Part shown: one piece after another, positions 8,531 through 56,976 of the stretch
Layout: each line of letters starts with the position of its first letter
Numbering within the stretch: the stretch's first letter is position 1
Source: an uncultured Nitrospiraceae bacterium
GTDB lineage: Bacteria; Nitrospirota; Nitrospiria; Nitrospirales; Nitrospiraceae
Length of the DNA stretch: 64,000 bases
Direction: 5' to 3'
NCBI GenBank assembly: GCA_963730935.1
Contig: CAVSTP010000003.1
Span: 640,001 to 704,000, forward strand
The notes under the pieces: generated by a model
Seen by the model: only the letters and a program-made list of their open reading frames with translations
The model's database searches: none
Told to the model about the DNA's origin: nothing
Position numbers and translations under genes: made by a program

Positions 8531-8546
8531 CTGTCAAATTTGACAG
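8531..8546. promoter_or_regulatory. Perfect 16-bp palindrome CTGTCAAATTTGACAG, putative transcription factor site
   Basis: Intergenic, about 105 bp upstream of fda; related sites at 27274 and 44204; -10-like TAGAGT at 8570-8575. Confidence 0.65.
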
Positions 8547-9554: not shown

Positions 9555-9621
9555 GATAAGCGGTCTGCTCTACTCGGACTGATGATAACTGAGGCGCAGG
9601 CCCTGACACTTCAGCGTTGAC

Positions 9622-10842: not shown

Positions 10843-10896
10843 TTATTTTGCAGGCGCCATCCATGAATCGGGGTGGCGGCAGGGAGGGAACGCCTC

Positions 10897-13302: not shown

Positions 13303-13333
13303 TTGCATCTTCTCCTTGTCGGAGGAGGGTTAA

Positions 13334-15808: not shown

Positions 15809-15837
15809 CAAGCGCGTGCACCGAACAGGTAGGTGTC

Positions 15838-16449: not shown

Positions 16450-16477
16450 ACGATCATAGCGAAAAGGGACGGCAATC

Positions 16478-18154
16478 ATGACCACGACCGCACGCAGCGC
16501 TCGCCCGAAGCTCAAGCGAATGACATTTCTCCCACGGCGGAAAGCCTGGAAGGCGCTGCAAGCTCATTATAAGGCTATGCAGGAGGTGCATCTGCGCACG
16601 TTGTTTGCGGAGGATGCTCAGCGAGGCACACGCTTGACCGCTGAAGCCGCAGGACTGTTTCTGGATTATTCCAAGAACCGGGTGACAGACGAGACCATCC
16701 GGCTGCTCGTACAGCTGGCCGAGGAGTCCGGGCTGCGCGACCGCATCGAGGCCATGTTCAGAGGCGACAAAATCAATGTGACGGAACATCGAGCGGTCCT
16801 GCATGTCGCCTTACGCGCACCGCGTGAAGCGTCAATTATGGTCGATGGTGAGAATGTGGTGCCCAAAGTCCATGCGGTGCTGGATCAAATGACCGTCTTT
16901 GCGAACCGTGTGCGGAGCGGCGATTGGAAGGGCCATACGGGCAAGCGGATCAAGAACGTCGTGAATATCGGCATCGGCGGATCGGACCTGGGACCGGTCA
17001 TGGCTTATGAGGCGCTCAAGTACTACAGCGAGCGGTCCATGACGTTCCGGTTCGTTTCAAATGTCGACGGGACCGATTTCACAGAAGCCGTCCGTGATCT
17101 CCAGCCCGATGAGACCTTGTTCATCGTGTCCTCAAAAACGTTCACGACGCTCGAAACCATGACCAACGCCAACAGCGCGCGCGAGTGGTCGCTCGCGGGC
17201 CTGGGCGGCGAACCGGCCGCAGTGGCGAAGCATTTTGTTGCGGTCTCCACGAATGCGGCGGAAGTCGGAAAGTTCGGCATCGACACCGCGAACATGTTTC
17301 CATTCTGGGATTGGGTGGGCGGCCGCTACTCGATGTTCTCGGCGATCGGACTCTCGACGATGCTGGCGATCGGTCCCGAGCAGTTCCGCGCCATGCTCAA
17401 TGGCGCTCATCAGATCGACGAGCATTTCCGCACCGCGTCCTTGGCAGAGAATCTCCCGGTACTCATGGGATTGCTCACGGTCTGGTACGTCAATTTCTTG
17501 GGGGCTGAGACCGTCGGGGTATTGCCCTATGAGCAGTATTTGAAACGATTCCCCGCCTATCTGCAGCAATTAACGATGGAGAGCAACGGCAAACACGTCA
17601 CCATCGACGGCAAGGGGGTGTCCTACGACACCGGCCCCGTGTTTTGGGGAGAGCCTGGGACCAACGGGCAACATTCGTTTTATCAGCTCATCCATCAGGG
17701 CACGAGGCTGATTCCTTGCGACTTCATCGCCTTTCACCGGTCGCTCAATCCGCTCGGCCGACACCACGAGTTGTTGGTGGCCAATGTCTTCGCGCAAACC
17801 GAGGCGCTGGCATTCGGCAAGACGGCCGAGGAGGTAAGAGCGGAGGGGACGCCGGAGTGGCTCGTGCCGCACCGGGTGTTCGAGGGAAACCGTCCCTCCA
17901 ATACGCTGTTCGCCGAGAGGTTGACGCCCGAGATGCTCGGCAAACTGGTCGCGCTGTACGAACACTCCGTGTTCACGCAAGGCATCATTTGGACCATCGA
18001 CTCATTCGACCAGTGGGGGGTCGAGCTGGGCAAGGTGTTGGCTCAACGCATCATTCCGGAGCTCGAAAGTCAGGAAGAGCCTGCGCTCAAACACGATAGT
18101 TCAACGAATCATCTGATTGGACGCCACCGTGCAAGGGCCCGCTCCAAGACGTAG
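16478..18154 (+). CDS. pgi: Glucose-6-phosphate isomerase
   Basis: [49 protein letters not shown]. Confidence 0.96.
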
Positions 18155-18170
18155 CTGAGTCTCGTCAAGC

Positions 18171-20294: not shown

Positions 20295-20324
20295 ATATTC
20301 GTAGTGTTTTGAGAGGAGTGAGCT

Positions 20325-21140
20325 ATGGCAAAAGACGGTAAGGGAGACGGCAACGGCAATTCCAAACTCAAGCGCAAGGAATACGAGAAGGAGCTGCGCC
20401 GGCTGCAGGCCGAATTGTGCCACCTTCAGGCCTGGGTAAAGCACAAGGGGCTTCGAATCATTATCCTGTTCGAAGGCCGCGATGGCGCTGGGAAAGGGGG
20501 GACCATTCGCGCCATTACCGAGCGTGTCAGTCCCCGTGTGTTCCGCGTGGTGGCGTTGCCTGCCCCCTCCGATCGCGAAAAGACGCAGATGTACTTACAA
20601 CGCTACATGACGCACTTCCCGGCGGCGGGTGAGATCGTGATTTTTGACCGGAGCTGGTACAACCGGGCAGGAGTCGAACATGTCATGGGCTTTTGCACCA
20701 AGGAGCAGTACAAAGCCTTTCTCGAACATGCGCCGACGGTCGAGGGCTACATCACCAAGGCAGGCATCCGACTGGTCAAGTACTGGCTCGAGGTCAGCAA
20801 TGACGAGCAAGAACGGCGCTTCCAGGCTCGCCTCGATGACCCGTTACGCCAGTGGAAACTCAGTCCGATAGATCTTCCTTCGCGGGAGAAATGGTACGAG
20901 TACTCGCGCGCACGCGACCGGATGCTGGAGGCCACGGACTCGAAGCACGCACCCTGGCATCTCGTGCGGTCGGACAATAAGCGAAGGGCGCGATTGAATA
21001 TTATCAAACACTTCTTGAGTTCTATCCCCTACAAAAAGATGCCCTATAAGAAGGTCAAGCTGCCCAAGCGATCGCACAAGCATGAATATGACGACCAGGC
21101 GACGCTGAAGGGAAGGAAGTTCATTCCCGAGGTGTACTGA
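20325..21140 (+). CDS. ppk2: Polyphosphate kinase 2
   Basis: FEGRDGAGKGG (Walker A), FDRSWYNRAGVE, WKLSP.D. Confidence 0.94.
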   Translation: MAKDGKGDGNGNSKLKRKEYEKELRRLQAELCHLQAWVKHKGLRIIILFEGRDGAGKGGTIRAITERVSPRVFRVVALPAPSDREKTQMYLQRYMTHFPAAGEIVIFDRSWYNRAGVEHVMGFCTKEQYKAFLEHAPTVEGYITKAGIRLVKYWLEVSNDEQERRFQARLDDPLRQWKLSPIDLPSREKWYEYSRARDRMLEATDSKHAPWHLVRSDNKRRARLNIIKHFLSSIPYKKMPYKKVKLPKRSHKHEYDDQATLKGRKFIPEVY

Positions 21141-21150
21141 GGAGGCGCAC

Positions 21151-23958
21151 ATGCCTACACGAGCGACAGGAAGGGAGCAGGCCACGAAGGGGAAGCAGAC
21201 GTACCTGACCGTCGAGCATGAACGGTTGTCCACCGATGGACAGGCATGGAAACGCTGGGGCCCCTACCTGAGCGAGCGTCAGTGGGGAACGGTCCGGGAG
21301 GACTACAGCGAAGGCGGGGACGCCTGGAATTATTTTACCCACGACCACGCCCGCTCGCGCGCCTACCGCTGGGGCGAAGACGGCCTCGCCGGTTTGTCCG
21401 ACGAAGAGCAGCGACTGTGCTTTGCCCTGGCCCTCTGGAACGGCAGGGACCCCATTCTCAAGGAACGCCTCTTCGGCTTGACCAACAGCGAAGGCAACCA
21501 CGGAGAGGATGTCAAAGAATACTACTTCTACCTCGACAGCACGCCAACGCACTCCTACATGAAGTTTCTCTACAAGTATCCTCAGGCCGCCTATCCCTAT
21601 GATGAGCTGGTCCACACGAATAGGCAGCGGAGCCGGGAGATACCGGAATACGAATTGCTCGATACCGGGGTCTTCAACGACGACCGCTACTTCGACGTCT
21701 TCGTCGAATATGCGAAGGCTGGACCAGATGATGTTCTCATTCAGATCACGGCAGCGAACCGGGGGCCGGAGGCGGCTGATCTTCACATCTTCCCGACGTT
21801 GTGGTTCCGGAACAATTGGGCTTCTTGGCAATCCAGGCCTGTCGAGAAACCGTCATTGAAACAGGTGAAGGGACCCAGAGGGACCAAGATCGTAGCGGCC
21901 ACCCATCCAACTTTGGGCGAATACCTGCTGTACTGCGAGGGGGAAGCGCCGCTGCTCTTTACCGACAACGAAACCAACAACGAACGGCTCTTTCCTGAAT
22001 ATCCCAACGCCAGTCCCTATGTGAAAGACGGCATCAATAATTACGTCGTCCAAGGTCAACAGCATGCCATCAATCCCGACCAAACCGGCACGAAGGTCTC
22101 GGCGCACTACCGGTTCAAGATTGCCCCCGGCGGGACCGCGACGGCGAAACTGCGTTTGGTTCGGCAGAACGTGCCGGCGGCCAAAGGCGCCAATCCCACA
22201 AAGGCAGCAGAAAAAACGAAGGTGGCCTCCCCATTCGGCCAAGGCTTTAATGACATCATGCAAGATCGGTTGCGGGAAGCCGATGAGTTCTACCGCGCGG
22301 TGACCCCTCCTTCGGTCACGCCCGATGAGGCGAACGTCATGCGGCAGGCCTTGGCCGGCATGCTCTGGAGCAAGCAGTTCTACTATCTCGATGCCGATCA
22401 GTGGTTGGAAGAACATTTTGCGCATCCTCTTCACAGCGGAAGCCGAGAGTTTCGAAACCGCGAGTGGTTTCACATGGTCAACCGCGACATCATTTCGATG
22501 CCGGACAAATGGGAATATCCCTGGTATGCCGCCTGGGATTTGGCGTTTCATACGCTGCCGATTTCGATTGTGGATCCCGAGTTCGCGAAGCACCAGATGA
22601 AATTAATGTTTCACGGGTATTACCTCCATCCGAGCGGCCAGATTCCGGCCTATGAGTGGAACTTCAGCGACGTGAATCCGCCTGTGCACGCCTGGGCCAC
22701 CCTGTTTCTGCACCGGACCGAGCAGGCCCTGCGCGGCGAGGGGGACATTGATTTTCTCAAGTCGGCCTTCAACAAGCTCCTGCTCAACTTCACCTGGTGG
22801 GTGAATCGGAAAGATCGTTTCGGCAAGAACGTCTTCGAGGGCGGCTTTTTAGGTCTCGACAACATCGGTGTGTTCGACCGAAGCGCTCCCTTGCCGACGG
22901 GCGGTCACCTCGAACAGGCAGACGGCACCGCGTGGATGGCCTTGTTCAGTCAGAACATGCTCGAAATCGCGGTAGAAATTGCCCCTCATGACCGCACATA
23001 CGCCGACATGGTCGAAAAATTCGTCGAGCATTTTCTCTACATTGCTGCGGCCATGAATGGGTCCGGCTCCGACGGCATGTGGGACGAAGAAGATGGGTTT
23101 TACTACGATCTCCTGCGATTGCCCGATGGACACTCCACCAGACTGAAAGTCCGCTCCATGGTGGGTCTGCTGCCGCTTTGCGCGACCACCGTCGTTGAAG
23201 ACTGGCAGCGAGAGCGGGTGCCCGAGGTGGCCGCCACGCTTCAGCAGCGTATGGAACAGATGCCTGAACTCCTGACGTTCATCCACAAGACAGGGCGGGC
23301 GCACCGTGGAGTGGCCGACCGCGGCATTCTGGCGCTGGTCAATGAAGAGCGGTTACGTCGCATTCTCTCGAAGATGCTGGACGAGAACGAGTTTCTGAGC
23401 CCCTACGGCATTCGCTCGCTCTCCAAGTTTCATCAACAGCATCCGTTCGTATTTCATGTCGGGGGGCAGGTCTACCGAGTGGACTACCTTCCGGCCGAAT
23501 CCAACACGGGGATGTTCGGCGGCAACTCCAACTGGCGTGGGCCCGTTTGGATGCCAGTGAATGCCATGATCATCCGGGCGCTGCTGTCGTACTACCTCTA
23601 TTATGGTGACAACTTCAAAATCGAATGCCCCACTGGGTCCGGCCGGATGATGAACCTGTTCGAGGTCAGCAAGGAAATTGCCAACCGCCTTACGGGAATT
23701 TTTCTGCGGGACGCACAAGGCAAGCGTGCGGTGTACGGTGGAACGGAAACATTCCAGTCCGATCCGCATTGGCGCGATTATCTTCAGTTCTACGAGTACT
23801 TCCACGGGGACAACGGCGCCGGGCTGGGCGCCAACCATCAGACCGGCTGGACGGGTTTGGTCGCGAAGATGATCGAACTCTACGGCCGACTGGATCCACA
23901 AATGCTGCTCAAGGAAGGAAAACGCGGCGCGCATGCAGGAGGAAAAACGGGAAAGTGA
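21151..23958 (+). CDS. GH63-like/MGH1-like glycoside hydrolase, paralog of 1..2730
   Basis: Same motifs as the first gene; long identical peptide stretches. Confidence 0.85.
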   Translation: MPTRATGREQATKGKQTYLTVEHERLSTDGQAWKRWGPYLSERQWGTVREDYSEGGDAWNYFTHDHARSRAYRWGEDGLAGLSDEEQRLCFALALWNGRDPILKERLFGLTNSEGNHGEDVKEYYFYLDSTPTHSYMKFLYKYPQAAYPYDELVHTNRQRSREIPEYELLDTGVFNDDRYFDVFVEYAKAGPDDVLIQITAANRGPEAADLHIFPTLWFRNNWASWQSRPVEKPSLKQVKGPRGTKIVAATHPTLGEYLLYCEGEAPLLFTDNETNNERLFPEYPNASPYVKDGINNYVVQGQQHAINPDQTGTKVSAHYRFKIAPGGTATAKLRLVRQNVPAAKGANPTKAAEKTKVASPFGQGFNDIMQDRLREADEFYRAVTPPSVTPDEANVMRQALAGMLWSKQFYYLDADQWLEEHFAHPLHSGSREFRNREWFHMVNRDIISMPDKWEYPWYAAWDLAFHTLPISIVDPEFAKHQMKLMFHGYYLHPSGQIPAYEWNFSDVNPPVHAWATLFLHRTEQALRGEGDIDFLKSAFNKLLLNFTWWVNRKDRFGKNVFEGGFLGLDNIGVFDRSAPLPTGGHLEQADGTAWMALFSQNMLEIAVEIAPHDRTYADMVEKFVEHFLYIAAAMNGSGSDGMWDEEDGFYYDLLRLPDGHSTRLKVRSMVGLLPLCATTVVEDWQRERVPEVAATLQQRMEQMPELLTFIHKTGRAHRGVADRGILALVNEERLRRILSKMLDENEFLSPYGIRSLSKFHQQHPFVFHVGGQVYRVDYLPAESNTGMFGGNSNWRGPVWMPVNAMIIRALLSYYLYYGDNFKIECPTGSGRMMNLFEVSKEIANRLTGIFLRDAQGKRAVYGGTETFQSDPHWRDYLQFYEYFHGDNGAGLGANHQTGWTGLVAKMIELYGRLDPQMLLKEGKRGAHAGGKTGK

Positions 23959-27273: not shown

Positions 27274-27289
27274 CTGTTACTTCTGACAG
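27274..27289. promoter_or_regulatory. Palindromic site CTGTTACTTCTGACAG
   Basis: Lies in the divergent intergenic region; matches the 8531 and 44204 motif. Confidence 0.55.
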
Positions 27290-44203: not shown

Positions 44204-44219
44204 CTGTTACTTTTGACAG
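44204..44219. promoter_or_regulatory. Palindromic site CTGTTACTTTTGACAG
   Basis: 86 bp upstream of ATG 44306; matches the 8531 and 27274 motif. Confidence 0.6.
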
Positions 44220-44305: not shown

Positions 44306-44782
44306 ATGACGATCAGGTTGATTTTGTGTGTATTTACCGGCATTTTCCTGCTGGCGGTTCCCGCCTTTGCTGAGCCGGCCTCAGATACGAACATGGAGAT
44401 CCTGAAGGAAAAACTTAAAGCCGACAAGAAACTGCTGATTGCCGGCAACATGGACCTTACCGACGCCGAAGCCAAACAGTTCTGGCCGCTGTACGACGAC
44501 TATCAAAAAGATCTTGAAGGCATCAACAAGCAGCTTGGTCAAACGATCAAGGAGTATGCGGATGCCTTCAACAAGGGGACGATTTCAAATGACACGGCAA
44601 AAAAGCTGCTCAACGAAGCCCTAACGGTCGAGGAGCAAGAGGTCAAGTTGAAACGCTCTTCTGCCGAGAAGCTTGGCAAGGTGCTGCCCGAGACTAAGGT
44701 TGCCCGCTATATCCAATTGGAAACCAAAATCCGGTCCCTGATCAAATTCGAGATGGCGCAACAAATTCCGCTGGTCTACTAG
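44306..44782 (+). CDS. Helical periplasmic hypothetical protein (Spy/CpxP-like)
   Basis: Signal peptide ..AVPAFA; NMDLT.AE..QFWPLYDDY motif. Confidence 0.65.
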   Translation: MTIRLILCVFTGIFLLAVPAFAEPASDTNMEILKEKLKADKKLLIAGNMDLTDAEAKQFWPLYDDYQKDLEGINKQLGQTIKEYADAFNKGTISNDTAKKLLNEALTVEEQEVKLKRSSAEKLGKVLPETKVARYIQLETKIRSLIKFEMAQQIPLVY

Positions 44783-44804
44783 GCCCAAACTAGCATACGT
44801 TTGA

Positions 44805-44837
44805 CCGTGACCCCTCGCTCGATCGGAGGGGTCACGG
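44805..44837 (+). terminator. GC-rich stem-loop (12-bp perfect stem): weak terminator or mRNA-stabilising hairpin
   Basis: CCGTGACCCCTC-N9-GAGGGGTCACGG; only a poor U-tract follows. Confidence 0.5.
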
Positions 44838-44869
44838 CGGTTTGTGTCGTGACGTCGGAGGGGAGCGAT

Positions 44870-45742
44870 ATGCCGGCAACTGATTCCAGCACTGTTCCAC
44901 TCATTCAACAGATATTTCATCCATCCGATTTCACTCCTGCCAGCGATAGTGCGTTTGTACACGCGCTGAAAATTGCACTGCTGGCGAAGGCCGAGTTGAC
45001 CATTCTCCATGTTTCGCCAAAACATGAATTAGAATGGACGGAATTCCCCGGCGTCCGATCGACGCTGGAACGCTGGAGACTCCTGCCCAAGAACAGTTCC
45101 CAGGCGGACGTGCTAAGGCTCGGCATCAACGTCAAGAAGGTTCAGGCCAAGCACGACGATCCCGTAACATCTGTCACGGGTTATTTGAGCACGCACAACA
45201 CAGATCTGATCGTCCTGGCCACCGACCAGCAGAAAGGACGGGTGCAGTGGCTGAGCCAGTCGATCGCCGCTCCCATCGCGCGCAAATCCCGTCAAATGAC
45301 ACTCTTCATGCCCAAAGGCGTTGAAGGATTCGTGTCAGCGCGGGATGGATCCATTTCGCTCACGAGCATCCTGATCCCCGTGGCGGAAACCCCGCCGGCG
45401 CAGCCGGCGATTCAGGCTGCCGCGCGAATGGCCAGCGGGCTGAATAGCTTATCGGGGGTATTCACAATTCTTCATGTCGGAGAAAAAACGGCTATGCCTG
45501 AGGTCCAGTTCACGGATGTGTCTGGTTGGAGTTGGAACACCGTGGTCCAGTCGGGCGACGTCGTCGACGTCATCAGCGAAACGGCAGCGGCAGTCAAAGC
45601 CGGACTGATCGTCCTGACGACAGAGGGGCGAAATGGGTTTCTCGATGCTCTACGTGGAAGCCATAGCGAACGAATTCTTCAACGAACTCCTTGTCCGCTG
45701 TTGGTGATTCCTGCGAGCGGCTTCATGGCCTCTGTGGTCTAG
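44870..45742 (+). CDS. Universal stress protein (tandem USP domains)
   Basis: IFHPSDF; DLIVLAT; LIVLTTEGRNGFLDALRGSHSERIL..TPCPLLVIP. Confidence 0.88.
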   Translation: MPATDSSTVPLIQQIFHPSDFTPASDSAFVHALKIALLAKAELTILHVSPKHELEWTEFPGVRSTLERWRLLPKNSSQADVLRLGINVKKVQAKHDDPVTSVTGYLSTHNTDLIVLATDQQKGRVQWLSQSIAAPIARKSRQMTLFMPKGVEGFVSARDGSISLTSILIPVAETPPAQPAIQAAARMASGLNSLSGVFTILHVGEKTAMPEVQFTDVSGWSWNTVVQSGDVVDVISETAAAVKAGLIVLTTEGRNGFLDALRGSHSERILQRTPCPLLVIPASGFMASVV

Positions 45743-45788
45743 GGGCACTTGTCCGTTGGAAGCACTGGTAGTGAAGAACGCAGGGCGC

Positions 45789-46565
45789 ATGACTCGATCG
45801 GGAGCCCACATAAGTCTTGTGCTGATGATTGCGTTGGCGACGGGTTGCTCCAGTTCAATCTATGGCTGGCAGGTGCGAACCGGTTCTGCAGAGTTCGCGC
45901 CCTCGTTCGATCCGGCAAGACTTACACAAGAGCCAGCCGCAGTGTTCGGGGCTCTTACGATGCCAGGACTCCGCGGAAATGAGGTAGGTTTGGACTTCAT
46001 GCTCGCTCAAGTGCTGCATCGAGTCGCCCCTCAGATACAGATTGTCAGCCCGCAGCGCAGCATGTCGAAAATCAATGAACTGGGTCTGGCATCGGAATAC
46101 ACGCAGATGCGGGCGGATGCGGAGCAGAGCCATATTCTCAATCGTGAAACCTTGAAAAAGCTTGGAACGGCAATTGGCGTTCGGTATGTCTTCCAGCCCC
46201 GTTTGGCTGCTTTCACCCAAACCATGTACGATCGCTGGACTTTTCCCGGTTTGGGAGTGCTCCTCATGCAGGTTCGAACGAGCAACTTGCGAATGTCACT
46301 CCAGCTGTGGAATACGGAAACCGGTGAGCTGCTGTGGGCCTCGATAGCGGAAGGGACCATGCAGAGTGAAGCCGTGTCGAAGGATCCCGTCTATTTTGAG
46401 GATGCGGCACGGGTTGCGTTGGGCAGCATCGTCTCAGACTTTCTGAATCGCCAGACGGCGTCAACCTACACTCCACTGGATAAGCTCCTCGACCAATTAA
46501 TTCAGGTTCCGTCGCCGGAAGAAACAGCGAGGAGCACGAACACAAATCCCCCACGGAGTCAATAG
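45789..46565 (+). CDS. Hypothetical lipoprotein
   Basis: Lipobox LATGC; LQLWNTETGELLW (CsgG/LpoB-like fold pattern); paralog at 32575. Confidence 0.7.
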   Translation: MTRSGAHISLVLMIALATGCSSSIYGWQVRTGSAEFAPSFDPARLTQEPAAVFGALTMPGLRGNEVGLDFMLAQVLHRVAPQIQIVSPQRSMSKINELGLASEYTQMRADAEQSHILNRETLKKLGTAIGVRYVFQPRLAAFTQTMYDRWTFPGLGVLLMQVRTSNLRMSLQLWNTETGELLWASIAEGTMQSEAVSKDPVYFEDAARVALGSIVSDFLNRQTASTYTPLDKLLDQLIQVPSPEETARSTNTNPPRSQ

Positions 46566-46569
46566 ACCT

Positions 46570-47019
46570 ATGAAGGCCGTCCGGAAGCATCAATCGCGCA
46601 CATCTCTTCGATGGTCGATGGCAGTGCTGGCCCTCTTTTGCCTCGCAATGAGCCCTGCCTGTGAAACGACGGATCGTTCCGAGCCGCCGCAATGGGTGCA
46701 GTTCCCCATTACCGACGTCTCCGAGGTTGCGGGAAAGTGGGATGGCCTCATGCGTCGAATACCGCCCGATCGAAGGGACGACTGGGTCACGGTCGCCATC
46801 GGCCCTGATGGAAAATATGAGTTCAGTAGCCTCCGAACCATCGGAGTCTTCAGCGGCCATGGTGAGTTTGCCCTCAACGAGGGAAGATTAGTCTCGAAAT
46901 CCGAACGAGGGACCGTCGAAGCGGTCCTCTATCAGGACGGTACCCACCGCATGCTCAAGGCCAAAGGCCGCGCTGCCGATGGAATGGAGTACACAGCAGA
47001 GGTAAAACCAGCCAAATGA
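46570..47019 (+). CDS. Hypothetical lipoprotein
   Basis: Signal peptide ending SPAC; operon spacing. Confidence 0.65.
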   Translation: MKAVRKHQSRTSLRWSMAVLALFCLAMSPACETTDRSEPPQWVQFPITDVSEVAGKWDGLMRRIPPDRRDDWVTVAIGPDGKYEFSSLRTIGVFSGHGEFALNEGRLVSKSERGTVEAVLYQDGTHRMLKAKGRAADGMEYTAEVKPAK

Positions 47020-47065
47020 ACGCTACCACACGATTCACCGGGTACGACCCATCGGGAGAACGACT

Positions 47066-48562
47066 ATGATGATTCGCGCTCTGACATTGGCTCGACAGCC
47101 TGTGAAGAATCTCTTTCTAGTGATACTGCTGGCAGCGGCAGCCGGCGCCTGCTCGATTAATCCTGTCAGCAACCTTCCAGAGGTCACTCTCATCACCGTC
47201 GAGCAAGAGAAGAAAATTGGCGAAGAGGAATCGAAGAAGGTTGAGCAGGAAATGGGCTTGCTCGATGACGCCGCTTTAACAAGTTATGTTGACGCGGTTG
47301 GCCAACGGCTTGTCAAGGAATCGCCACGACACGACCTGCCACACCAATTCCATGTCGTGGATATGGTCGAGCCGAACGCCTTTGCGCTTCCCGGCGGCTA
47401 TGTGTACGTCACGCGCGGGTTACTGGCGTTGGTCAATACTGAAGACGAGTTGGCCGGGGTAGTCGGCCATGAAATTGGGCACGTCGCTGCGAGGCATACA
47501 GTCCAGAGGATATCCCGCCAAGGGCCGTTCGCGCTCATCACCAATCTCGTGTCAGGCGTGACCGGCTTTTTTGTTCCGGTCGTCGGAAATATCGTCGGAG
47601 GCGTGGGCAATTTCGCCCAGAGTCTCGTGTTTTCTCCGTATAGCCGGTCCCAGGAGAGTCAGGCGGATGAAGTCGGACAGGAGATGGCGGCCAAGGCCGG
47701 CTGGGATCCTGTTGGACTCGCCACCTTTTTGGCCACCCTGGGGCGTGAGGAAGCGCTATTAAGCGACGGCCCACGCAAGCCCAGCTTCTTCGACTCCCAT
47801 CCTGCCACGCCGGATCGAGTCAAGAATACGACGAAGCACGCGAAGGGTCTCACACAGGCCAAGCGAGAACCAATTTCGCCTTCACATGACGCCTTCCTTG
47901 CGAGGCTTGACGGTCTCGTCGCGGGTCAGCGGGCCGCGAACGGCATTATTCAGGGATCGACCTACCGCCACCCTGATTTGAACTTTTTTGTCCAGTTCCC
48001 GGCCTCGTGGAATGTAGACAATACGCCCGTGCAATTGGCCGCGGCGCCGAAAGATGGGGGCACAGCAGTCGTCCTCCGTGCTGTCGCCCAGGGGAATGAT
48101 CCTCTGGACGGGGCCCGCGCCTTGGAAAAGGCCAGCAAGTCCACGCTCCCCAGAACGGAGACGACGACGATCAACGGGCTGCCTGCAGCCCGCACGCAGG
48201 TGGGCGACTCCAGGTTGAAGGTCGATCTCACGTGGATCGCCCATGGCGGCATGATTTACCAAATCGCGGGCATCGGGGAGACCAGGAATTTTGACACCGT
48301 TCGCCCGGTGTTCCAGACGGTCGTTGAGAGTTTCCGCCCTCTGTCTCCTGACGAGCGAAAGAACATCCGTGAAAAACGGATTCGTCTTGTAAAAGCGAAA
48401 GAAGGGGAAACGGTGAAGGAATTGACTGCCCGCTCGCAATCGGCCTGGAAGGCCAATCAAGTGGCCGTCGCGAATAATCTCGAGGAATCGGACCGTCTGC
48501 GGGAAGGACAGTTGATCAAAATCACCGTCGAAGAACCCTATGCCGGAAAACAACAGCGATGA
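47066..48562 (+). CDS. M48 family zinc metalloprotease lipoprotein with C-terminal LysM-like domain
   Basis: Lipobox AGAC; NAFALPGG; HEIGH; YSRSQESQAD; SHP.TPDR; LysM-like tail. Confidence 0.88.
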   Translation: MMIRALTLARQPVKNLFLVILLAAAAGACSINPVSNLPEVTLITVEQEKKIGEEESKKVEQEMGLLDDAALTSYVDAVGQRLVKESPRHDLPHQFHVVDMVEPNAFALPGGYVYVTRGLLALVNTEDELAGVVGHEIGHVAARHTVQRISRQGPFALITNLVSGVTGFFVPVVGNIVGGVGNFAQSLVFSPYSRSQESQADEVGQEMAAKAGWDPVGLATFLATLGREEALLSDGPRKPSFFDSHPATPDRVKNTTKHAKGLTQAKREPISPSHDAFLARLDGLVAGQRAANGIIQGSTYRHPDLNFFVQFPASWNVDNTPVQLAAAPKDGGTAVVLRAVAQGNDPLDGARALEKASKSTLPRTETTTINGLPAARTQVGDSRLKVDLTWIAHGGMIYQIAGIGETRNFDTVRPVFQTVVESFRPLSPDERKNIREKRIRLVKAKEGETVKELTARSQSAWKANQVAVANNLEESDRLREGQLIKITVEEPYAGKQQR

Positions 48563-49107
48563 GCTCTTCTTCTGACTCGCATGCCTCGGCGGGAGTCTCC
48601 ACCGGTCCAGACGGCGGGCGCCGACGGTTTTTTCAGTTGGTCATCAAGGCGTCGGCCGGCTTGATCGGGCTCAGCCTTGCGGTTCCTTTGGTCGGCTACC
48701 TCGTCTCTCCGGCATTCAAGCGGCGGGCGCAGCAGTGGGTGGACGTGGCCTCTGCGGGCGAGCTGCCGGCCGGCGTTCCCAAACAGTTGGAGTACGTAGC
48801 GACTATTCAGGACGGCTATCTCGAAACCAAGACGCAAAAGGCCGTCTGGGCGGTGAAACAGGCCAACGGAGAAGTCACGGTGTTTTCTCCCATGTGCACT
48901 CACCTGGGGTGCGGCTATCACTGGGACGGCGCAGGGCAACAGTTCAAGTGTCCCTGCCATGGCAGCGTGTTCGACATCTCGGGACGTGTCGTTGCGGGAC
49001 CGGCGCCGCGGCCGCTGGATGCCTTGCCTACAAAGATCGAGAACGGTCGTCTCCTTGTGGTGTTCAAGGAGTTCAAGTCGGGAGTTGCGAAACAGCTCGA
49101 ACTGTAA
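48559..49107 (+). CDS. qcrA: Rieske iron-sulfur subunit of a cytochrome bc complex
   Basis: Tat anchor GRRRFF plus TM helix; CTHLGC and CPCHGS boxes; GPAPRPL. Confidence 0.92.
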   Translation: MSSSSDSHASAGVSTGPDGGRRRFFQLVIKASAGLIGLSLAVPLVGYLVSPAFKRRAQQWVDVASAGELPAGVPKQLEYVATIQDGYLETKTQKAVWAVKQANGEVTVFSPMCTHLGCGYHWDGAGQQFKCPCHGSVFDISGRVVAGPAPRPLDALPTKIENGRLLVVFKEFKSGVAKQLEL

Positions 49108-49145
49108 TGGGCAAGGTGAGTCACGCTTGTGCGTGAGGAGGGGCT

Positions 49146-50666
49146 ATGGATGAGGTCGACGGACGACGCGCCCGGAACGCCATGACCCCTGACGCGCGGT
49201 TGTTCAACCGATGGTTTCTCTGGACGCTGTGGTGTGCGCTGGCCATGACGTCGACCACCGTCATGACGGTCGATGCCGCTCCAGCGACGAAAGCGCACAG
49301 TGCGAAAGCCAAGGGCAGCTCGTCTCAAGGGAAATCGGCTGCCCAAAAGGGCGGCACGATTCCGGCCATCCTGACGGATGCTCCCAAAGTACCGCCGCGT
49401 ATCACGCGCCGTCACCCAAGCAAGGTCGTCGTCGAACTAGAGGTGAGCGAGGTCAACCTGTCGATGGCCGACGGCGTCGAATACACCTTCTGGACCTTCG
49501 GCGGAAAAGTTCCCGGAAAATTCATTCGAGTGCGGCAAGGCGATACGGTCGAATTCCACCTCATGAACCATCCCGACAGCCGGTTCCCTCATAACATCGA
49601 CCTCCATGCGGTGACCGGCCCAGGCGGTGGAGCTGCCAGCAGCAACACCGCACCAGGGCGCCGCACGCAATTCACGTTCAAGGCGCTCAATCCAGGGCTC
49701 TACGTCTATCACTGCGCGACGGCGCCGGTCGGCGAGCACGTCGCCAATGGCATGTACGGACTGATCCTGGTCGAGCCGCCAGGGGGATTGGCTCCAGTGG
49801 ATCGTGAGTATTATGTGGTGCAGAGCGATTTTTATACCAAAGGACCGCACCATGAGAAAGGTCATCAACCCTTCGACATGGAAAAAGCCATCGAGGAACA
49901 TCCCACCTATGTCGTGTTTAACGGCGCCGAAGGGTCCTTGTTGGGTGACAAGGCGCTCAAGGCCAAAGTCGGGGAACGTGTCCGTCTGTTTGTAGGAAAC
50001 GGCGGACCGAACCTCGTCTCCAGTTTCCATGTCATCGGCGAGATCTTCGACCGGGTCTATGCGGAAGCTGGTACCCGCTACTCTGAGCACATTCAAACCA
50101 CGCTTGTCCCGGCAGGAGGAGCAGCCATCGTGGAGTTTAAGGTGGAAGTTCCCGGTTCCTACAAACTCGTGGACCATTCCATTCTGCGCGCGTTCAACAA
50201 AGGGGCGCTTGGGGAGTTGAAGGTCGAAGGGCCGGAGGCAAAGGGAACTTATTCAGGGAAGCAGGCGGAATCGGACTATCAGCCGAAAGTCGGCGTGACC
50301 GGCAAGCCTGCCATGGCGGCCGCGACGATGACCTCCGGAGTGGGTGGTCAGCGCCTCTATCAAACCTACTGCATGGGATGTCACCAGGCCGAGGGACAGG
50401 GGATTCCGGGCACGTTTCCGCCACTCGCGAAATCGGACTACCTCTTGGCCGAAACCTCCCGATCAATCGACACGGTTGTCAACGGTCTTCACGGACCCAT
50501 TGAGGTGAACGGGCAACCGTACAATGGGACCATGCCGCCGATGGGGCATCTGAAGGATGAAGAGATTGCCGATATTTTGACTTACGTACGGAGTTCATGG
50601 GGCAACGAGGCCAATCCCATTTCGGCGGCGGAAGTGGCGGCCGTGCGGGCGAAGATTTCTCATTGA
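49146..50666 (+). CDS. nirK: Copper-containing nitrite reductase with C-terminal fused cytochrome c
   Basis: [36 protein letters not shown]-terminal CMGCH..GTFPPLA..MP. Confidence 0.95.
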
Positions 50667-50679
50667 AGAGGACCTGACC

Positions 50680-51030
50680 ATGAATCGGGGGCTGTTTGCA
50701 GCGTTATGTGCAGGACTGGTTCTTGGACTACTGTTGTGGGGCACCCGGGTCGTCGATGCCGGCGATCCTGCAAAGGGTAAGGCGCTCTATGAGAAGCACT
50801 GCCTCGTCTGTCACGGGCCGCAAGGCAAGGGAGACGGACCGGCAGGAAAAGCCCTCAAGCCGCCCGCCGCCGACTTCACGAGTCCGGAAAGTAAAAAGAA
50901 GCCCGAGGCCGACTTGAGGCAAGTGCTCGAAAACGGAAAACCTGGTACTGGCATGGGTCCGTGGAAGAGTCAGCTGCGCCAATCTGAGCTGAACGAACTG
51001 ATGGGCTATGTCATGACTCTGAGAGAATAG
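50680..51030 (+). CDS. Monoheme class I cytochrome c
   Basis: Signal peptide; CLVCHG..GKGDGP; GKPGTGM axial Met. Confidence 0.9.
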   Translation: MNRGLFAALCAGLVLGLLLWGTRVVDAGDPAKGKALYEKHCLVCHGPQGKGDGPAGKALKPPAADFTSPESKKKPEADLRQVLENGKPGTGMGPWKSQLRQSELNELMGYVMTLRE

Positions 51031-51059
51031 CCGTTTATCAGTGGCAGGAGAAGCGTGCG

Positions 51060-52388
51060 ATGACATCCCGCATCTATGAGTGGCTGGATAGTCGGCTGAA
51101 GCTCAAGTCTCTCGAAAAAACATTGTTAGACGAGCCGATCCCCGGCGGAGCCAGCTGGATCTACGTCTTTGGCTCGGCCACGCTCTTCCTCTTTATTCTC
51201 CAAGCGGTCACCGGCATGTTCCTGGCCGTCTATTACGCGCCGACCCCGGACCATGCGTACGACAGTGTGCAGTTCATCGAGCAGCAGATTACGTTTGGCT
51301 GGTTCGTCCGCGGCCTTCACCACTGGGGTGCGTCAGGGATGGTGATCGCAGTCGGCCTGCACATGCTGCAAGTGTTTCTCTACGGCGCGTTCAAGCCGCC
51401 GCGCGAATTGATGTGGATGGTCGGCGTCGCATTGTTCTTCCTCGTCATGGGGTTCGCCTTTACCGGCTACCTGCTCCCCTGGGACCAAACTGCCTACTGG
51501 GCCACACAGGTGGGCATCAACATGGTGGGCACGGTTCCGCTCGTCGGTGACTTTCTGGTGAAGGTCATGCGTGGCGGAGAGACGCTGGGTGCTCTGACGC
51601 TCTCACGGTTTTTTGCGGTTCATGTGCTGTTTCTTCCGGCGCTCATTGTCACGGGGATTGTCGTGCATCTCTTCATCCTTCGGCGGGTCGGACCGGCCGG
51701 TCCCTGGGATGAACGCAAAGCGGCGGCCGTCCGTGAACCTTTTTATCCTCGCCAAGTCTACATGGATGCGGTGGTGATGGTGGCGGTCTTTCTTGTCCTG
51801 GTCTTCTTGGCGACCTTCGTACCGTTTCCGCTGGCCGACAAAGCCAACCCCGCGGATACCAGTTTTGTGCCGGTGCCGGAATGGTATTTTCTCTTCTATT
51901 ATGAGTTACTGAAGCACGTCCATGGTCCGCTGGAACCGTTGGCCACGTGGGTACTACCGGCAATTGCGATTGCAGTGATGCTGCTCTGGCCGTTTCTCGA
52001 CTGGCAAAAAAATGTCCGGGCTCCGGCCTCGCGCCCGGTGGGTATGGCCGTCGTCGCCGTGTTTCTCATCACAGTCTTTTCTCTCCTAGGCATCTCGTTG
52101 AAAAGCCTATACGGCATGAAGCGAACGGATCCGGCGATTGTGCACGGTCAGTCGCTGTATACGAATCTCGGTTGCTTGGGGTGTCATCGCATCCATGGCA
52201 ACGGTGGCGCGATCGGACCGGATCTCTCTTATGAAGGGGACGCCCGTCCGGATCGGGAATGGCACATCAAGCATTTCCATGATCCGCAATCGGTGTCGCC
52301 GGGATCGATCATGCCGAAATTTCCATTGACCGAGGCGGAACTGCAAGATCTGACGAGTTACATACTGAGTCTCAAGCGGACGACGTAA
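51060..52388 (+). CDS. qcrB: Cytochrome b (N-terminal part plus subunit IV) fused to a C-terminal cytochrome c
   Basis: RGLHHWGAS..GLHM, FTGYLLPWDQ, RFFAVH..VVH, PEWY; C-terminal CLGCH..IGPDL..MP. Confidence 0.92.
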   Translation: MTSRIYEWLDSRLKLKSLEKTLLDEPIPGGASWIYVFGSATLFLFILQAVTGMFLAVYYAPTPDHAYDSVQFIEQQITFGWFVRGLHHWGASGMVIAVGLHMLQVFLYGAFKPPRELMWMVGVALFFLVMGFAFTGYLLPWDQTAYWATQVGINMVGTVPLVGDFLVKVMRGGETLGALTLSRFFAVHVLFLPALIVTGIVVHLFILRRVGPAGPWDERKAAAVREPFYPRQVYMDAVVMVAVFLVLVFLATFVPFPLADKANPADTSFVPVPEWYFLFYYELLKHVHGPLEPLATWVLPAIAIAVMLLWPFLDWQKNVRAPASRPVGMAVVAVFLITVFSLLGISLKSLYGMKRTDPAIVHGQSLYTNLGCLGCHRIHGNGGAIGPDLSYEGDARPDREWHIKHFHDPQSVSPGSIMPKFPLTEAELQDLTSYILSLKRTT

Positions 52389-52412: not shown

Positions 52413-52442
52413 TTGACGATGTCGGGAGGGCAATTGTATAAG
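52413..52442 (+). promoter_or_regulatory. Putative sigma70 promoter of the RND operon
   Basis: TTGACG-18 bp-TATAAG, 30 bp before ATG 52473. Confidence 0.45.
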
Positions 52443-52472
52443 AAACACCCTTCCTCGTTTGCCGGAGGACGT

Positions 52473-53657
52473 ATGGATCATGCGCTCAAAGGGCGATTCC
52501 TGGTCCGATCAGCGGCATCGGTCCTGTGGATGAGCCTGTCGGCACTGGCGCTGGTTCACTGTAAGGGTGAAACGGCTTCCGCTCCTCCCCCTCCCTTAGT
52601 TCAAGTCGAAGTGGCCGACGTCCTTCAGAAAGATGTGCCCATTCAAATGGAGTGGGTCGGGACCACGGATGGTTCGAACAACGCCCTCATACGGGCGCAG
52701 GTCAGCGGCTATCTCCTGAAACGGCCCTACGTCGAAGGGGCCTTCGTGAAAAAGGGCGACCTGCTGTTCGAGCTCGACCCGAGCAAGTTCCAGACGGTGC
52801 TTGATCAGGCGTTGGGTGATCTGGCGAAAGCCCAAGCGCAATTCACGAAAAGTAAACAGGACGTTGATCGCGATACGCCGCTTGCCAAGGAAGGCGCCAT
52901 CAGCCAGAAGGAACTGGATGATTCCGTCCAATCCTATGCGGCGACGAAAGGGACTCTTGCGACTGCGAAAGCCGCTGTCGAACAGGCGAAACTCAATCTT
53001 GGATGGACAAGGATCACGGCTCCGATTGACGGCGTCGTCGGCATTTCAAAGGCTCAAATCGGCGATCTCATCGATGCCAGCACTGAGTTGACGTCAGTGT
53101 CGACGCTGGATCCGATCAAGGTCTATTTTCCTGTGAGTGAACAAGAATACTTCGAGGCCGCGGATAAGATCCAGCAAGGCTACAAAGACCGGCAAGAGGG
53201 AAAAGAATACAGCTTGGCATTCCTCGAACTCGTTTTAGGCGGGGAGAAGGTGTATCCGCACAAAGGACAATTTCATCTTGTCGATCGGCAAGTCGATACG
53301 AAGACCGGCACCATTCGCGTGGCAGCACTCTTTCCTAATCCCAACAATCTGCTGAGGCCCGGACAGTTCGCCAGGGTACGGGCGGTGACCAAGACCAAGG
53401 AGAAGGCCATCTTAGTTCCACAGCGGGCCGTGACGGAGATGCAGGGCAGTTACCAGGTGGCCGTCGTCACTCCGGAGAACAAGGTGGACATCCGTCCCGT
53501 CAAGGTCGGTCATCGGTCCGGCAGTCTGTGGATCATCGACCATGGGCTCAAGCCGGGTGAGCGTGTCGTGGTCGAAGGGCTGCAGAAAGTCAAAGCCGGG
53601 ATGACCGTCGATCCCAAACCGTTCCAAGAGCAGCAGCCAGAACAGAAAATCGGATAA
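52473..53657 (+). CDS. RND efflux membrane fusion protein
   Basis: IRAQVSGYL, TRITAPIDG, LRPGQF, GLKPGERVVVEG; RBS GGAGGA. Confidence 0.92.
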   Translation: MDHALKGRFLVRSAASVLWMSLSALALVHCKGETASAPPPPLVQVEVADVLQKDVPIQMEWVGTTDGSNNALIRAQVSGYLLKRPYVEGAFVKKGDLLFELDPSKFQTVLDQALGDLAKAQAQFTKSKQDVDRDTPLAKEGAISQKELDDSVQSYAATKGTLATAKAAVEQAKLNLGWTRITAPIDGVVGISKAQIGDLIDASTELTSVSTLDPIKVYFPVSEQEYFEAADKIQQGYKDRQEGKEYSLAFLELVLGGEKVYPHKGQFHLVDRQVDTKTGTIRVAALFPNPNNLLRPGQFARVRAVTKTKEKAILVPQRAVTEMQGSYQVAVVTPENKVDIRPVKVGHRSGSLWIIDHGLKPGERVVVEGLQKVKAGMTVDPKPFQEQQPEQKIG

Positions 53658-53710
53658 AGTTGACGCTGGTCTGATCGTTTCCACTGCCTGTAGCGTAATC
53701 CTTCAATCCT

Positions 53711-56700
53711 ATGGCGAAATTTTTCATCAATCGGCCGATTGTTGCCATGGTGATCTCCATCATCATGGTGATTCTCGGCGTGATTGCAATGGTGCAACTG
53801 CCGATCGCGATGTTTCCGAACATCGCGCCGCCGGAGATCCTGCTGCAAGCCACGTATGTCGGAGCCGATGCCGTCACACTGGAAAAATCGGTTGCCACTC
53901 CCATCGAGCAATTGATGAGCGGCGTGGACAACATGATCTACATGTATTCGGTGAACGCGAACAACGGCCAAATGTCATTGCGAGTCAACTTCGACATTAA
54001 CACGAGGCCAAACGACGATCAGATCCTGGCGCAGATGCGGTATACCCAGGCGGAATCGCAACTGCCTGCCGATGTCAAGAATTTCGGGGTCACCATTAAA
54101 AAGGCCACGACCAGCCCCCTCGCCCTGTTCTCCCTCTACTCTCCGAACGGCACCTACGACGCGACGTTCTTGGCGAATTATGGCTACGTCAACATCAATG
54201 ATCCGATGACGCGCGTGCCTGGGATTGGACAGGTACAAATCTTCGGCGCCGGGCAATATGCCATGCGATTCTGGGTCCGGCCCGACCACCTCGCCAAGCT
54301 AGGCATCACGGTGACTGAAATTACGAATGCCATTAAGGCTCAGAACACGGTGAATCCTGCCGGCCAAGTGGGTGCCGAACCGGTGCCGCCCGGACAAGAG
54401 TTTACGTACAGTGTGCGTGCCCAGGGCCGCCTGGAGTCGGAAGAAGAGTTCGGGAATATCGTGATCCGTGCGAATCAGGACGGATCCATGGTCCGGCTCA
54501 AGGACGTCGCCCGCATTGAGCTCGGCGCACAGATGTACAACATCATCGGCAGGATGAATGGCAAGCCTGCTGCCCTCATCGCCATTTATCAGCTTCCAGG
54601 CTCCAATGCCATTCAAACCATGGATGAGGCGACCAAGCTGATGGAGGAGATGAAAGCCAGGTTCCCGGCCGATCTCGACTACGTCATCTCGCTTGATACG
54701 ACACAGGCCGTGCGGGAAGGCATCAAGGAGATCGTTCACACCCTCTTTGAAGCCCTCATCCTCGTCATCATCGTCGTCTATATTTTCCTTCAAGGGTGGC
54801 GCGCCACGCTAATTCCGCTGCTCGCCGTGCCTGTCTCGCTGATCGGCACGTTCACACTATTTCCGTTGCTCGGGTTTTCCATCAACACCTTGTCACTCTT
54901 TGGTCTCGTGCTGGCGATCGGCCTGGTGGTCGACGACGCCATCGTGGTCGTCGAAGCGGTTGAGCATCACATCGAGCACGGGATGTCGCCGAAGGACGCC
55001 GCTCTCAGGGCCATGGAGGAAGTCTCTGGACCGGTGATCGCGATCGCACTCATCCTTGCGGCGGTCTTTGTCCCGACGGCATTCATCCCTGGTATTACCG
55101 GGCGGCTGTATCAGCAATTTGCGGTGACGATCGCGCTATCAGTGGTGATCTCAGCGTTCAACGCGCTGACGCTGAGCCCTGCCCTCTCGGCGCTCTTACT
55201 ACGGCCGAGAACACCGGCGCGTGGGCCGCTTGGTCTCTTCTTTGCTTGGTTCAACAAATGGTTCGGGCGCGCGACAGACGGGTATGTGAATGTATGCGGC
55301 CACCTGATTAGAAAGGCTGGCCGCTCGATGTTGCTTCTTCTGGTGGTGACCGTCGTCGCGGGCTGGCTTGGTTTACAATTACCGAGCGGTTTTCTCCCGA
55401 TGGAAGACCAGGGCTATGTCTATCTCAATGTGCAACTGCCGGAGGCCTCATCGCTCCAGCGCACGGATGAAGTGTGCAGGAAGATCGAGGCGATCCTGAA
55501 AGCGACTCCTGGCGTCAAGTATGCCTCCACGATCGTTGGGTTCAGTCTGTTGAGCACGGTGAGCACCACCTACAATGCGTTTTTCTTTGTCACCCTGGCT
55601 CCCTGGGAAGAACGGAAGAAGTCCGAAGAACAGCTTCTTGCCATTTTTCAGAGTGTGAATGGGCGTCTCGCCGGTTTGCCCGAGGCCAAAGCCTTCCTGT
55701 TTCCCCCGCCCGCAATCCCGGGAGTCGGCACGTCCGGCGGCGTGTCCTTTGTCTTAGAGGATCGAGCGAGCCGAGATATCGAATTCCTCGCAACCAACAC
55801 GCAGAAATTCATGGAGGCACTCAGGAAACGTCCGGAAATTGCGCGAGTCGATACGACGTTTATTCCCGCCGTACCTCAAGTCTTTGCGAGGGTGGATCGT
55901 GAGAAGGTCTTGAAGCAAGGTATCAATCTGTCAGATGTCTACCAGACGCTGCAGTCGTTCATGGGCGGCGTCATGGTGAATTTCTTTAACCGGTTCGGGC
56001 GTGTCTGGCAGGTCTACGTGGAGGCAGAAGGGGATTTCCGCACACAGGCAGAAAATGTCGGACAATTTTATGTGCGGAACGCGAACGGCGATATGGTCCC
56101 GCTTTCCGCATTGGTGACGATGGACATCTTTCATGGCCCGGAGTTCACGATGCGCTATAACGAGTATCGTGCGGCGCAACTGATGGCAGCCGCGGCTCCC
56201 GGCTACAGCTCGGGACAGGCCATGAAGGCCGTTGAACAAGTATTCGCAAGCCAAATGCCTGATGGGATGGGACTCGAGTACATGGGCATGTCGTTCCAAG
56301 AGAAAGTGGCCTCGGAAGGCGTACCTGCGACGGTGATTTTCGGTTTCTCGCTCCTCTTTGTGTTTTTGATTCTCGCGGCGCAGTACGAGAGCTGGGCCTT
56401 GCCGTTCAGCGTGCTGCTCGGAACGCCGATCGCCGTGTTCGGCGCCTTCGGCGCACTGTGGCTGCTGAAGCTGGTGGCGCCTCAGGCAAGCGAGAACGAC
56501 GTCTTCACTCAGATCGGGTTGGTGATGCTGATCGGATTGGCGGCGAAGAATGCCATCCTCATTGTTGAGTTCGCGAAGGTGGAGTACGAGAAAGGGAAAT
56601 CGATCGCCGATGCCGCTTTGGCCGGAGCCAGATTGCGGCTCCGCCCCATCTTGATGACGGCCTTTGCATTCATTCTCGGCGTGCTCCCGCTCGTCATGGC

Positions 56701-56965
56701 GACCGGCGCCGGCGCGCACGGCCGGGTGTTGCTTGGTCTTGCCGTGTTCGGTGGGATGCTGGCCGCAAGCCTGATTGCGATCTTTCTCATTCCGGTCACC
56801 TTCTACGTCGTCGAGAATTTCGTGCATCGGGGAGGGCAACATACTGCGCCGCCTCCAACGCCGCCCTCAGAACCGGCTCAGAATCCAGGGGATGGAGAAT
56901 TGTCCCGAGGAGTGCCGCAGCCGGCGCTGACACCGACCCATGTGCGTGAAAGCGAAAGCTATTGA
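53711..56965 (+). CDS. RND efflux permease (HAE1/AcrB family)
   Basis: [43 protein letters not shown]. Confidence 0.95.
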
Positions 56966-56976
56966 GGAGGCATGAC

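Follow-up and report, generated by a model that had tools for sequence, protein, structure and literature searches.

Nitrospira are soil and water bacteria that turn nitrite into nitrate. The role of the copper nitrite reductase NirK in nitrite-oxidising Nitrospira is given as undetermined in two papers (PMC6606698, PMC3578206). Here we describe a gene module in a 64,000-nucleotide stretch of DNA from an uncultured Nitrospiraceae bacterium (GenBank assembly GCA_963730935.1, contig CAVSTP010000003.1, positions 640,001 to 704,000; hereafter the window), in which nirK and a small cytochrome c gene lie between the Rieske and cytochrome b genes of a bc complex (complex III). Sequence comparison indicates that the module is real, conserved, facultative and convergent, and we think it rather probable that it forms a forward branch from quinol through Rieske/cytochrome b and haem c to NirK, making nitric oxide (NO) and probably draining electrons from stored glycogen. 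The genome carrying the window is called G000; G, L and P numbers denote the genomes, loci and protein clusters compared.

In the denitrifier chain, bc1 passes electrons through a cytochrome c or cupredoxin to NirK (PMC3475470, PMC6349771), a chemistry and carrier order shared with the module. That chain normally uses a shared bc complex, a diffusible carrier encoded elsewhere and a downstream NO reductase, whereas the module has a separate bc paralogue, is encoded in one operon or polypeptide, and has no NO reductase that we could find. The second complex III of Nitrospira (qcrA2/qcrB2, 'CIII_2'; PMC6606698, PMC5767232) likewise consists of a Rieske protein and a fused cytochrome b/c of equal size. 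As described, for N. moscoviensis among others (PMC6606698), it includes a further, dihaem cytochrome c and lacks nirK, whereas the module has nirK and a monohaem cytochrome c between the core genes, or NirK fused in relatives. Of 371 family genomes, 167 have a match at E<=1e-105.

The octahaem nitrite reductase (ONR) of Nitrospira likewise comes with a dedicated Rieske/cytochrome b pair, through which quinol is proposed to deliver electrons to this periplasmic enzyme (PMC6606698, PMC12342949), and G000 has both systems. ONR is a haem enzyme, ammonium-forming, assimilatory and served by another bc paralogue, whereas the module enzyme is a copper protein and NO-forming; the window module has no octahaem HAO-family terminal subunit. 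The anammox complex Kuste4569-4574 (PMC12954380) is again a Rieske/cytochrome b complex, proposed to make NO from nitrite via an associated subunit. It has an HAO-like octahaem acceptor, an NAD(P) oxidoreductase subunit and menaquinone, none of which belongs to the module. No NAD(P) oxidoreductase or multihaem subunit gene is present among the 17 module neighbours scanned. The window NirK shares its architecture with three-domain copper nitrite reductases that bear a tethered cytochrome c (PDB 3ziy/4ax3 and 2zoo, from Ralstonia pickettii and Pseudoalteromonas haloplanktis), none of which is known to be encoded within a bc operon.

The concept of a Rieske/cytochrome b pair feeding a nitrite reductase is known (ONR, Kuste4569-74), while the NirK version and the cytochrome b-cytochrome c-NirK fusion described below appear undescribed. 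The first-pass annotation knew of no such arrangement, and full-text literature searches turned up no account of a nirK placed inside, or fused to, a bc complex, in a scope that did not extend to articles behind a subscription, some supplements, or the papers that first reported the N. moscoviensis and N. defluvii genomes. In N. japonica NJ1, qcrA2 (NSJP_2511), nirK2 (NSJP_2512, 492 aa) and qcrB2 (NSJP_2514) are consecutive, are listed in separate supplement table sections and pass unremarked in PMC5767232, whose main text names NirK once, in a legend.

The four module genes (Table 1) lie on the + strand in the order Rieske, nirK, cytochrome c, cytochrome b with gaps of 38, 13 and 29 bp, and open reading frame (ORF) coordinates agree on this with the first-pass annotation, as do the three haem c motifs it pointed out: CMGCH (409, NirK), CLVCH (41, small cytochrome c) and CLGCH (372, cytochrome b/c). 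NirK scores 357.4 bits with the curated NirK model TIGR02376 (cut-off 296.3), and its residues 65-503 align with PDB 3ziy (E 2e-184), every ligand and the linker tyrosine being aligned. By this alignment the type-1 copper ligands are H149/C190/H198/M203, the type-2 copper ligands H154/H189/H344, and the catalytic residues D152/H295, roles that are established for the family; these motifs are kept in 14 of 14 intact genes. The C-terminal class I haem c domain (PF00034, residues 401-485) contains C409/C412/H413/M463, and the solved structures nearest to the window NirK are nitrite reductases. The Rieske protein has an RRRFF export motif, one membrane helix (24-42) and the boxes CTHLGC and CPCHGSVF; it thus possesses both cluster boxes with the disulfide cysteines and a membrane anchor, and CxHLGC and CPCHGS are present in 14 of 14 sequences. 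The cytochrome b/c has seven predicted helices, haem b ligands H87/H101/H188/H203, PEWY at 273-276 and CLGCH/M418, and the four histidines and PEWY are invariant in 16 of 16 aligned cytochrome b sequences. Seven helices would place its haem c domain on the outside with NirK. The protein has b6-type histidine spacing and a b6-like Arg past the last haem ligand, with Val at the haem ci Cys position; as a fused chain that lacks the haem ci cysteine and scores under the PRK03735 and PetC cut-offs, it falls outside the cytochrome b6f/haem ci class. All cofactor ligands of the module proteins are intact.

The cytochrome c-tethered NirK clade is found in 14 of 33 genus genomes and 23 of 371 family genomes (G267 being assigned by tree), and in a phylum-wide sample of 250 further genomes there was no tethered NirK at E<=1e-115. 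All but one of the 23 copies lie within a Rieske-nirK-(cytochrome c)-cytochrome b locus, in 6 genera and with varying flanking genes; 19 of these 22 loci have both flanks on one contig and 3 are cut by contig ends (G017, whose genes are split over two contigs, was set as module-bearing by hand). The synteny check that the first-pass annotation had proposed as a safeguard against chance insertion therefore came out in favour of the module, and its view that nirK was inserted into an older Rieske-cytochrome b pair is borne out by the comparative data. Among metagenome contigs (80 kept of 329 loci, with redundancy), nirK lies inside in 24 of 39 informative contigs whose cytochrome b is >=79% identical, vs 0 of 36 below 79%. 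All four genes are under purifying selection (dN/dS 0.05-0.17 for 5 pairs, two cytochrome c values being saturated), and NirK and cytochrome b distances co-vary (Mantel rho 0.64, n=14), as kinship alone would also produce. Frameshifts in G006, G030, G364 and G267 extend into neighbouring genes and look like assembly errors. A decayed nirK in G016 was considered and rejected, the interruption being a scaffold gap.

The small cytochrome c is present in 16 of the 22 loci, absent in 5 and undecidable in 1; of the metagenome contigs with nirK in the locus, 11 of 24 lack it, as do 5 of the 21 genomes that are informative. Judged by these counts it is dispensable and no obligatory link. The chain proposed by the first-pass annotation, quinol to Rieske/cytochrome b to cytochrome c to NirK, is accordingly upheld as a dedicated coupling, by the fixed gene order and by the second pairing and fusions below, and given up as regards an obligatory small cytochrome c. 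In relatives the gap between Rieske and cytochrome b/c can also hold other genes, of 121-128 aa in two and 369 aa in one (L068/G020, L077/G035, L071/G036), so this gap tolerates insertions.

The trees are quick maximum-likelihood trees with support from SH-aLRT only. In the cytochrome b tree (86 rows, without the two short rows G114b and G071n), every module-bearing copy falls in one 34-row clade, with a support of 97 for the module cytochrome b partners. Within this clade nirK occurs on both basal branches and is missing in 12 rows, which fits one gain followed by several losses or transfers. The module NirKs form one clade (support 99) that branches from within the tethered NirKs of Myxococcota, Methylomirabilota and Pseudomonadota, and by this placement nirK is judged to have been acquired horizontally from outside the phylum. 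Single module-positive genomes occur in otherwise negative genera, and G153 and G083 hold a module copy together with another cytochrome b/c paralogue, suggesting that the module may be transferred as a unit.

A second pairing involves other members of both families. In at least five genomes (G286, G271, G317, G144 and G390, picked non-exhaustively from listed coordinates) a different, two-domain NirK clade (support 100, lipoprotein-like N-termini) is encoded directly 3' of a different cytochrome b/c clade, in three of the five with a 4-bp overlap with the cytochrome b/c stop codon; NirKs of this clade in G394 and G071 have no intact cytochrome b alongside. In G114 cytochrome b, cytochrome c and NirK form a single reading frame, the only such fusion in the 371 family genomes (L223:2107-3780, - strand). 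Six further fusion clusters at 90% identity (P0001-P0006; 48 member sequences, Nitrospiraceae where named) were found, four of them with full-length representatives of 784-817 aa that are 66-88% identical; all these fusions are annotated in their sources merely as cytochrome b or NirK. The linker has 41-69 residues (Ser/Thr/Pro/Ala), and haem and copper ligands are kept; since it is hydrophilic and has no signal peptide, the fusion is not a stop read-through. Fused cytochrome b parts sit in at least two places of the tree and fused NirK parts inside the second NirK clade (in a tree that skipped seven proteins). In these relatives the bc-NirK association is covalent by sequence, a membrane-integral architecture that is absent among PDB sequence matches. 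An AlphaFold2 model of fusion P0002 was unusable (pLDDT 39.6, from a 6-row alignment). Nothing else argues as strongly as these fusions for electron transfer to NirK from the haem c domain of such a complex III, although for the window's own proteins the argument is indirect. As separate observations, NirK-like copper domains are also fused to P-type copper ATPases (P0210-P0228, some named Patescibacteria), and many genomes of genera g40 and g42 have tandem two-domain nirK pairs ~150-200 bp apart.

The first-pass annotation had taken the host for a nitrifier, and it is indeed a nitrite-oxidising Nitrospira: Nitrospira sp. records L098 and L105 share the gene order, and G000 has two NxrA-sized genes, one of them checked against 7b04. 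An AMO search of G000 gave no match, but its control was likewise silent, so that comammox is not formally ruled out. G000 has three Rieske/cytochrome b pairs (a core pair beside bd-like oxidases, one beside an octahaem cytochrome, and the module pair), so the module bc copy would be free to specialise. The sole PF13447 match in the genome, at C3:556 kb, adjoins another Rieske/cytochrome b pair, and in the Rieske protein of the octahaem module (G000:C3:554070-554447) Asp replaces the first cluster histidine (CTDLGC). A second, ordinary nirK is also present. Searches of G000 whose positive controls matched gave no haem-copper oxidase/NO reductase family member, no globin and no hybrid cluster protein.

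In the preferred reading, a NirK gained by horizontal transfer would have become the dedicated terminal acceptor of an accessory complex III of Nitrospira, made up of Rieske and the fused cytochrome b/c. At the Qo site quinol would be oxidised, and the high-potential electron would pass to Rieske and on to the haem c on cytochrome b, then, optionally through the small cytochrome c, to the haem c tethered to NirK, to the type-1 copper and to the type-2 copper, where nitrite would be reduced to NO in the periplasm. The quinone of aerobic Nitrospirota is of a high-potential type (bioRxiv 10.1101/2024.07.27.605408, in which we saw no midpoint value); the potential of the nitrite/NO couple is +380 mV, and +335 mV was measured for a Rieske protein that has the same Ser/Phe pair (both from PMC12954380). 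With these values forward electron flow would be downhill. Since no NO reductase was found, NO would leave the cell or serve as a signal, and the role of the module would be limited to survival, overflow or signalling. The most likely source of the electrons would be glycogen reserves broken down while the oxygen-consuming route is restricted, making the module a survival or redox-overflow branch rather than a means of growth by denitrification. Inferred, in this picture, are which way the electrons run, that they pass directly between haems, that the low-potential arm translocates charge, where the electrons come from and what induces the module; Q-cycle energy conservation, low-oxygen use and a stable supercomplex of the unfused window proteins, as put forward by the first-pass annotation, are likewise predictions.

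Glycogen is suggested as the probable source because a conserved operator-like palindrome, CTGTCA-N4-TGACAG, heads both the predicted module operon and a glycogen/phosphoketolase/acetate-kinase operon (Table 1). Within the window alone the palindrome is not significant (4 matches at two mismatches vs 2.2 expected), and its support is genome-wide, with 16 exact and 33 near-exact sites in G000 vs 0-1 and 2-8 for control spacings. Exact palindromes occur in 26 of 33 genus genomes, where the reversed control is nearly absent. The site stands at the same place ahead of the packed gene run in G013 (exact), G012, G030 and G006, and where Rieske opens the operon (G085, G088, G153, G083, G086 and G293) it lies directly 5' of that gene, ~105 bp from its start. 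It is also found at the start of transaldolase-gnd in G000, and in 6 genomes and 10 contigs related cytochrome b/c genes have gnd, xfp/ackA or glgP as neighbours. A PAS-HisKA_3 kinase and a NarL-type regulator (G000:C3:637814-638467), encoded at the edge of the island that holds the module, have a palindrome in their promoter region, and a NarL-type orthologue occurs in 20 of 26 genomes with the palindrome vs 1 of 7 without it, counts drawn from kin that are not independent. These two proteins and a lone receiver (candidate regulator region G000:C3:637300-639600) are likely candidate controllers of an apparently undescribed Nitrospira palindrome regulon. Further predicted targets include sugar catabolism, a urea transporter and a universal stress protein (Usp). 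Reading the palindrome as a LexA box was rejected, no LexA domain being found in G000 with controls matched, as was acyl-homoserine-lactone quorum sensing, there being no Autoind_bind match above cut-off. FNR, CRP and sigma-54 consensus sequences are absent from the 350 bp 5' of Rieske in 13 of 13 genomes scanned; the locus does not look like an FNR/CRP-controlled denitrification operon, and the distant promoter at 44.2 kb has the CTGTCA-N4-TGACAG palindrome instead. The stored-carbon operon itself gives a complete glycogen-to-acetate route (phosphoketolase, acetate kinase, PPK2; window 8652-23958), a candidate substrate-level ATP source for survival of a nitrite oxidiser.

A bolder version of this reading, which we hold only tentatively, is that a physical complex III-NirK assembly has arisen more than once in Nitrospiraceae, up to a single cytochrome b-cytochrome c-NirK polypeptide. 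With it, bacteria taken for nitrite oxidisers would use nitrite to respire stored glycogen and would give off NO, controlled by a two-component regulon of their own. The bc complex is a dimer and NirK a trimer. Their covalent union would face a mismatch of two-fold and three-fold symmetry, to which a larger membrane assembly is one example of a solution.

Several observations weigh against the electron branch proposed here. NirK is missing in 12 of the 34 same-clade cytochrome b/c rows (in 11 of which the upstream DNA can be seen), the 91%-identical G013 among them, and in 15 of the 39 informative metagenome contigs; the nirK-bc link is therefore facultative, and, with nirK missing in at least 11 close relatives, the bc complex does not depend on it. 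G087 has this nirK with no Rieske/cytochrome b within the 15 kb fetched. Outside Nitrospira, 77 of 78 tethered-NirK loci (from the best 80 of 594, flanks often short) have no Rieske or cytochrome b match and the remaining one has only a cytochrome c-domain match, so tethered NirK normally works without a bc neighbour. No window-type NirK fused to cytochrome b was found among 20 longer relatives in a weak search, and the known fusions use the other NirK clade. The missing haem ci cysteine leaves quinone reduction at the inner site, and a Q cycle, as predictions only. The palindrome is missing near the module in the fetched DNA of G001, G009, G016, G102, G364 and G267, its predicted regulon is mixed (urease, sulfatases, catalase-like and haemerythrin proteins, many unknown exported proteins), and the sensor of the candidate regulator has no identified ligand. 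Finally, N. moscoviensis on formate took nitrate only to nitrite (PMC6606698), which speaks against major denitrification in that strain, albeit one whose second complex III, as described, has no nirK.

Some of these points would be accommodated if nirK were co-regulated with a spare complex III and not wired to it, NirK being fed by the general periplasmic cytochrome c pool (e.g. from nitrite oxidation) and NO acting as a signal or oxidase inhibitor. The frequent loss of nirK and the small cytochrome c, the position of the locus in a shuffled accessory island, among genes that have nothing to do with respiration, and the tethered NirKs without a bc neighbour elsewhere are consistent with this, and NO as a regulator has been modelled for Nitrobacter and suggested for Nitrospira (PMC6606698; PMC3578206). 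We nevertheless consider it unlikely, since nirK keeps its place between Rieske and cytochrome b while the flanks change, and since a second NirK clade was independently paired with cytochrome b/c and then covalently fused behind the haem c domain.

Neither fusion nor gene order reveals direction, and the module could be wired and run uphill, NirK oxidising NO to nitrite (or sharing haems reduced by NXR) and the bc complex working in reverse to reduce quinone for NADH formation and CO2 fixation. Reverse electron transport is a necessity for Nitrospira, and its complex III exists as several paralogues (PMC6606698, PMC3578206). Copper nitrite reductases are reversible in vitro, and an NO sink would be useful in a genome where searches for an NO reductase, a globin and a hybrid cluster protein came back empty. 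The neighbours and co-regulated genes are, however, catabolic (glycogen, phosphoketolase, gnd) and not anabolic, the core complex III copy is the more highly expressed one in N. moscoviensis (PMC6606698), and the nearest solved relatives reduce nitrite; this direction seems to us still less likely than an unwired NirK. That nirK is a passenger inserted by chance is very improbable and largely refuted, for although its distribution is patchy and it came from outside the phylum, 22 of 23 copies occupy one position over 6 genera under purifying selection, with an independent second pairing and fusions besides.

The first-pass annotation had described the locus as a bc operon. The gene order is real, while the four genes are no free-standing unit and belong to a longer packed + strand run (44306-59370) with intergenic gaps of -4 to 87 bp. 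A promoter and terminator scan, as a whole at chance level, gave no sigma70-like or terminator-like consensus between the four module genes and one weak terminator-like match inside the start of nirK. Metatranscriptome contigs of relatives (four runs, X1-X4, at small shares of 0.09-0.13) include listed pieces that span M48-Rieske, cytochrome c-cytochrome b and cytochrome b-membrane fusion protein and none that joins nirK to a neighbour; these contigs are short and show neither a single transcript nor expression. Upstream, a patatin-like gene (window 42685-44149) is split in two ORFs 13 bp apart and is probably broken, since G087 (L201) has a single 462-aa ORF. Elsewhere the island holds a lone ATP synthase gamma subunit gene (6998-7930, - strand), away from the other ATP synthase genes, and several short DUF1254/DUF1214/HAD pieces resembling fragments of longer genes (33583-39525). 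An rRNA operon (16S, two tRNAs and the start of 23S, 59738-64000) follows immediately past the island.

Table 1. Features of the module locus and of the palindrome sites, in window coordinates.
Feature	Coordinates	Strand	Remarks
Palindrome CTGTCA-N4-TGACAG, exact copy	8531..8546	.	~105 bp 5' of sugar-catabolism operon
Aldolase, acetate kinase, phosphoketolase, glycogen phosphorylase, phosphoglycerate mutase-like, PGI, isoamylase, PPK2, GH63	8652..23958	+	predicted co-regulated stored-carbon catabolism operon
Further palindrome site	27274..27289	.	genome-wide palindrome listing
Palindrome CTGTCA-N4-TGACAG, one mismatch	44204..44219	.	~100 bp 5' of first gene of packed run
Unknown exported protein, universal stress protein, two unknown lipoprotein-like genes	44306..47019	+	first four genes of predicted operon; variable flank, outside conserved core
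M48 peptidase gene	47066..48562	+	4 bp overlap with Rieske start; flank in closest relatives only
Rieske [2Fe-2S] subunit, qcrA2-type	48559..49107	+	182 aa, PF00355
NirK, three-domain copper nitrite reductase with C-terminal tethered cytochrome c	49146..50666	+	506 aa, TIGR02376
Small exported monohaem cytochrome c	50680..51030	+	116 aa, Cytochrom_C, CLVCH, M92
Fused cytochrome b6 + subunit IV + cytochrome c, qcrB2-type	51060..52388	+	442 aa, Cytochrome_B + Cytochrom_B_C + Cytochrom_C
RND efflux trio: membrane fusion protein, AcrB-type pump, outer membrane factor	52413..58512	+	frequent, not universal downstream flank

For NirK of nitrite-oxidising Nitrospira, the module points to one particular chain of electron donors and to candidates for the electron source and the regulator. 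Since it is present in the cultured strain N. japonica NJ1 (NSJP_2511-2514), the role of NirK becomes directly testable. If the proposed branch is real, some soil Nitrospira would be NO sources under falling oxygen, and the cytochrome b-cytochrome c-NirK fusion would represent a new membrane-integral architecture of a heavily studied enzyme.

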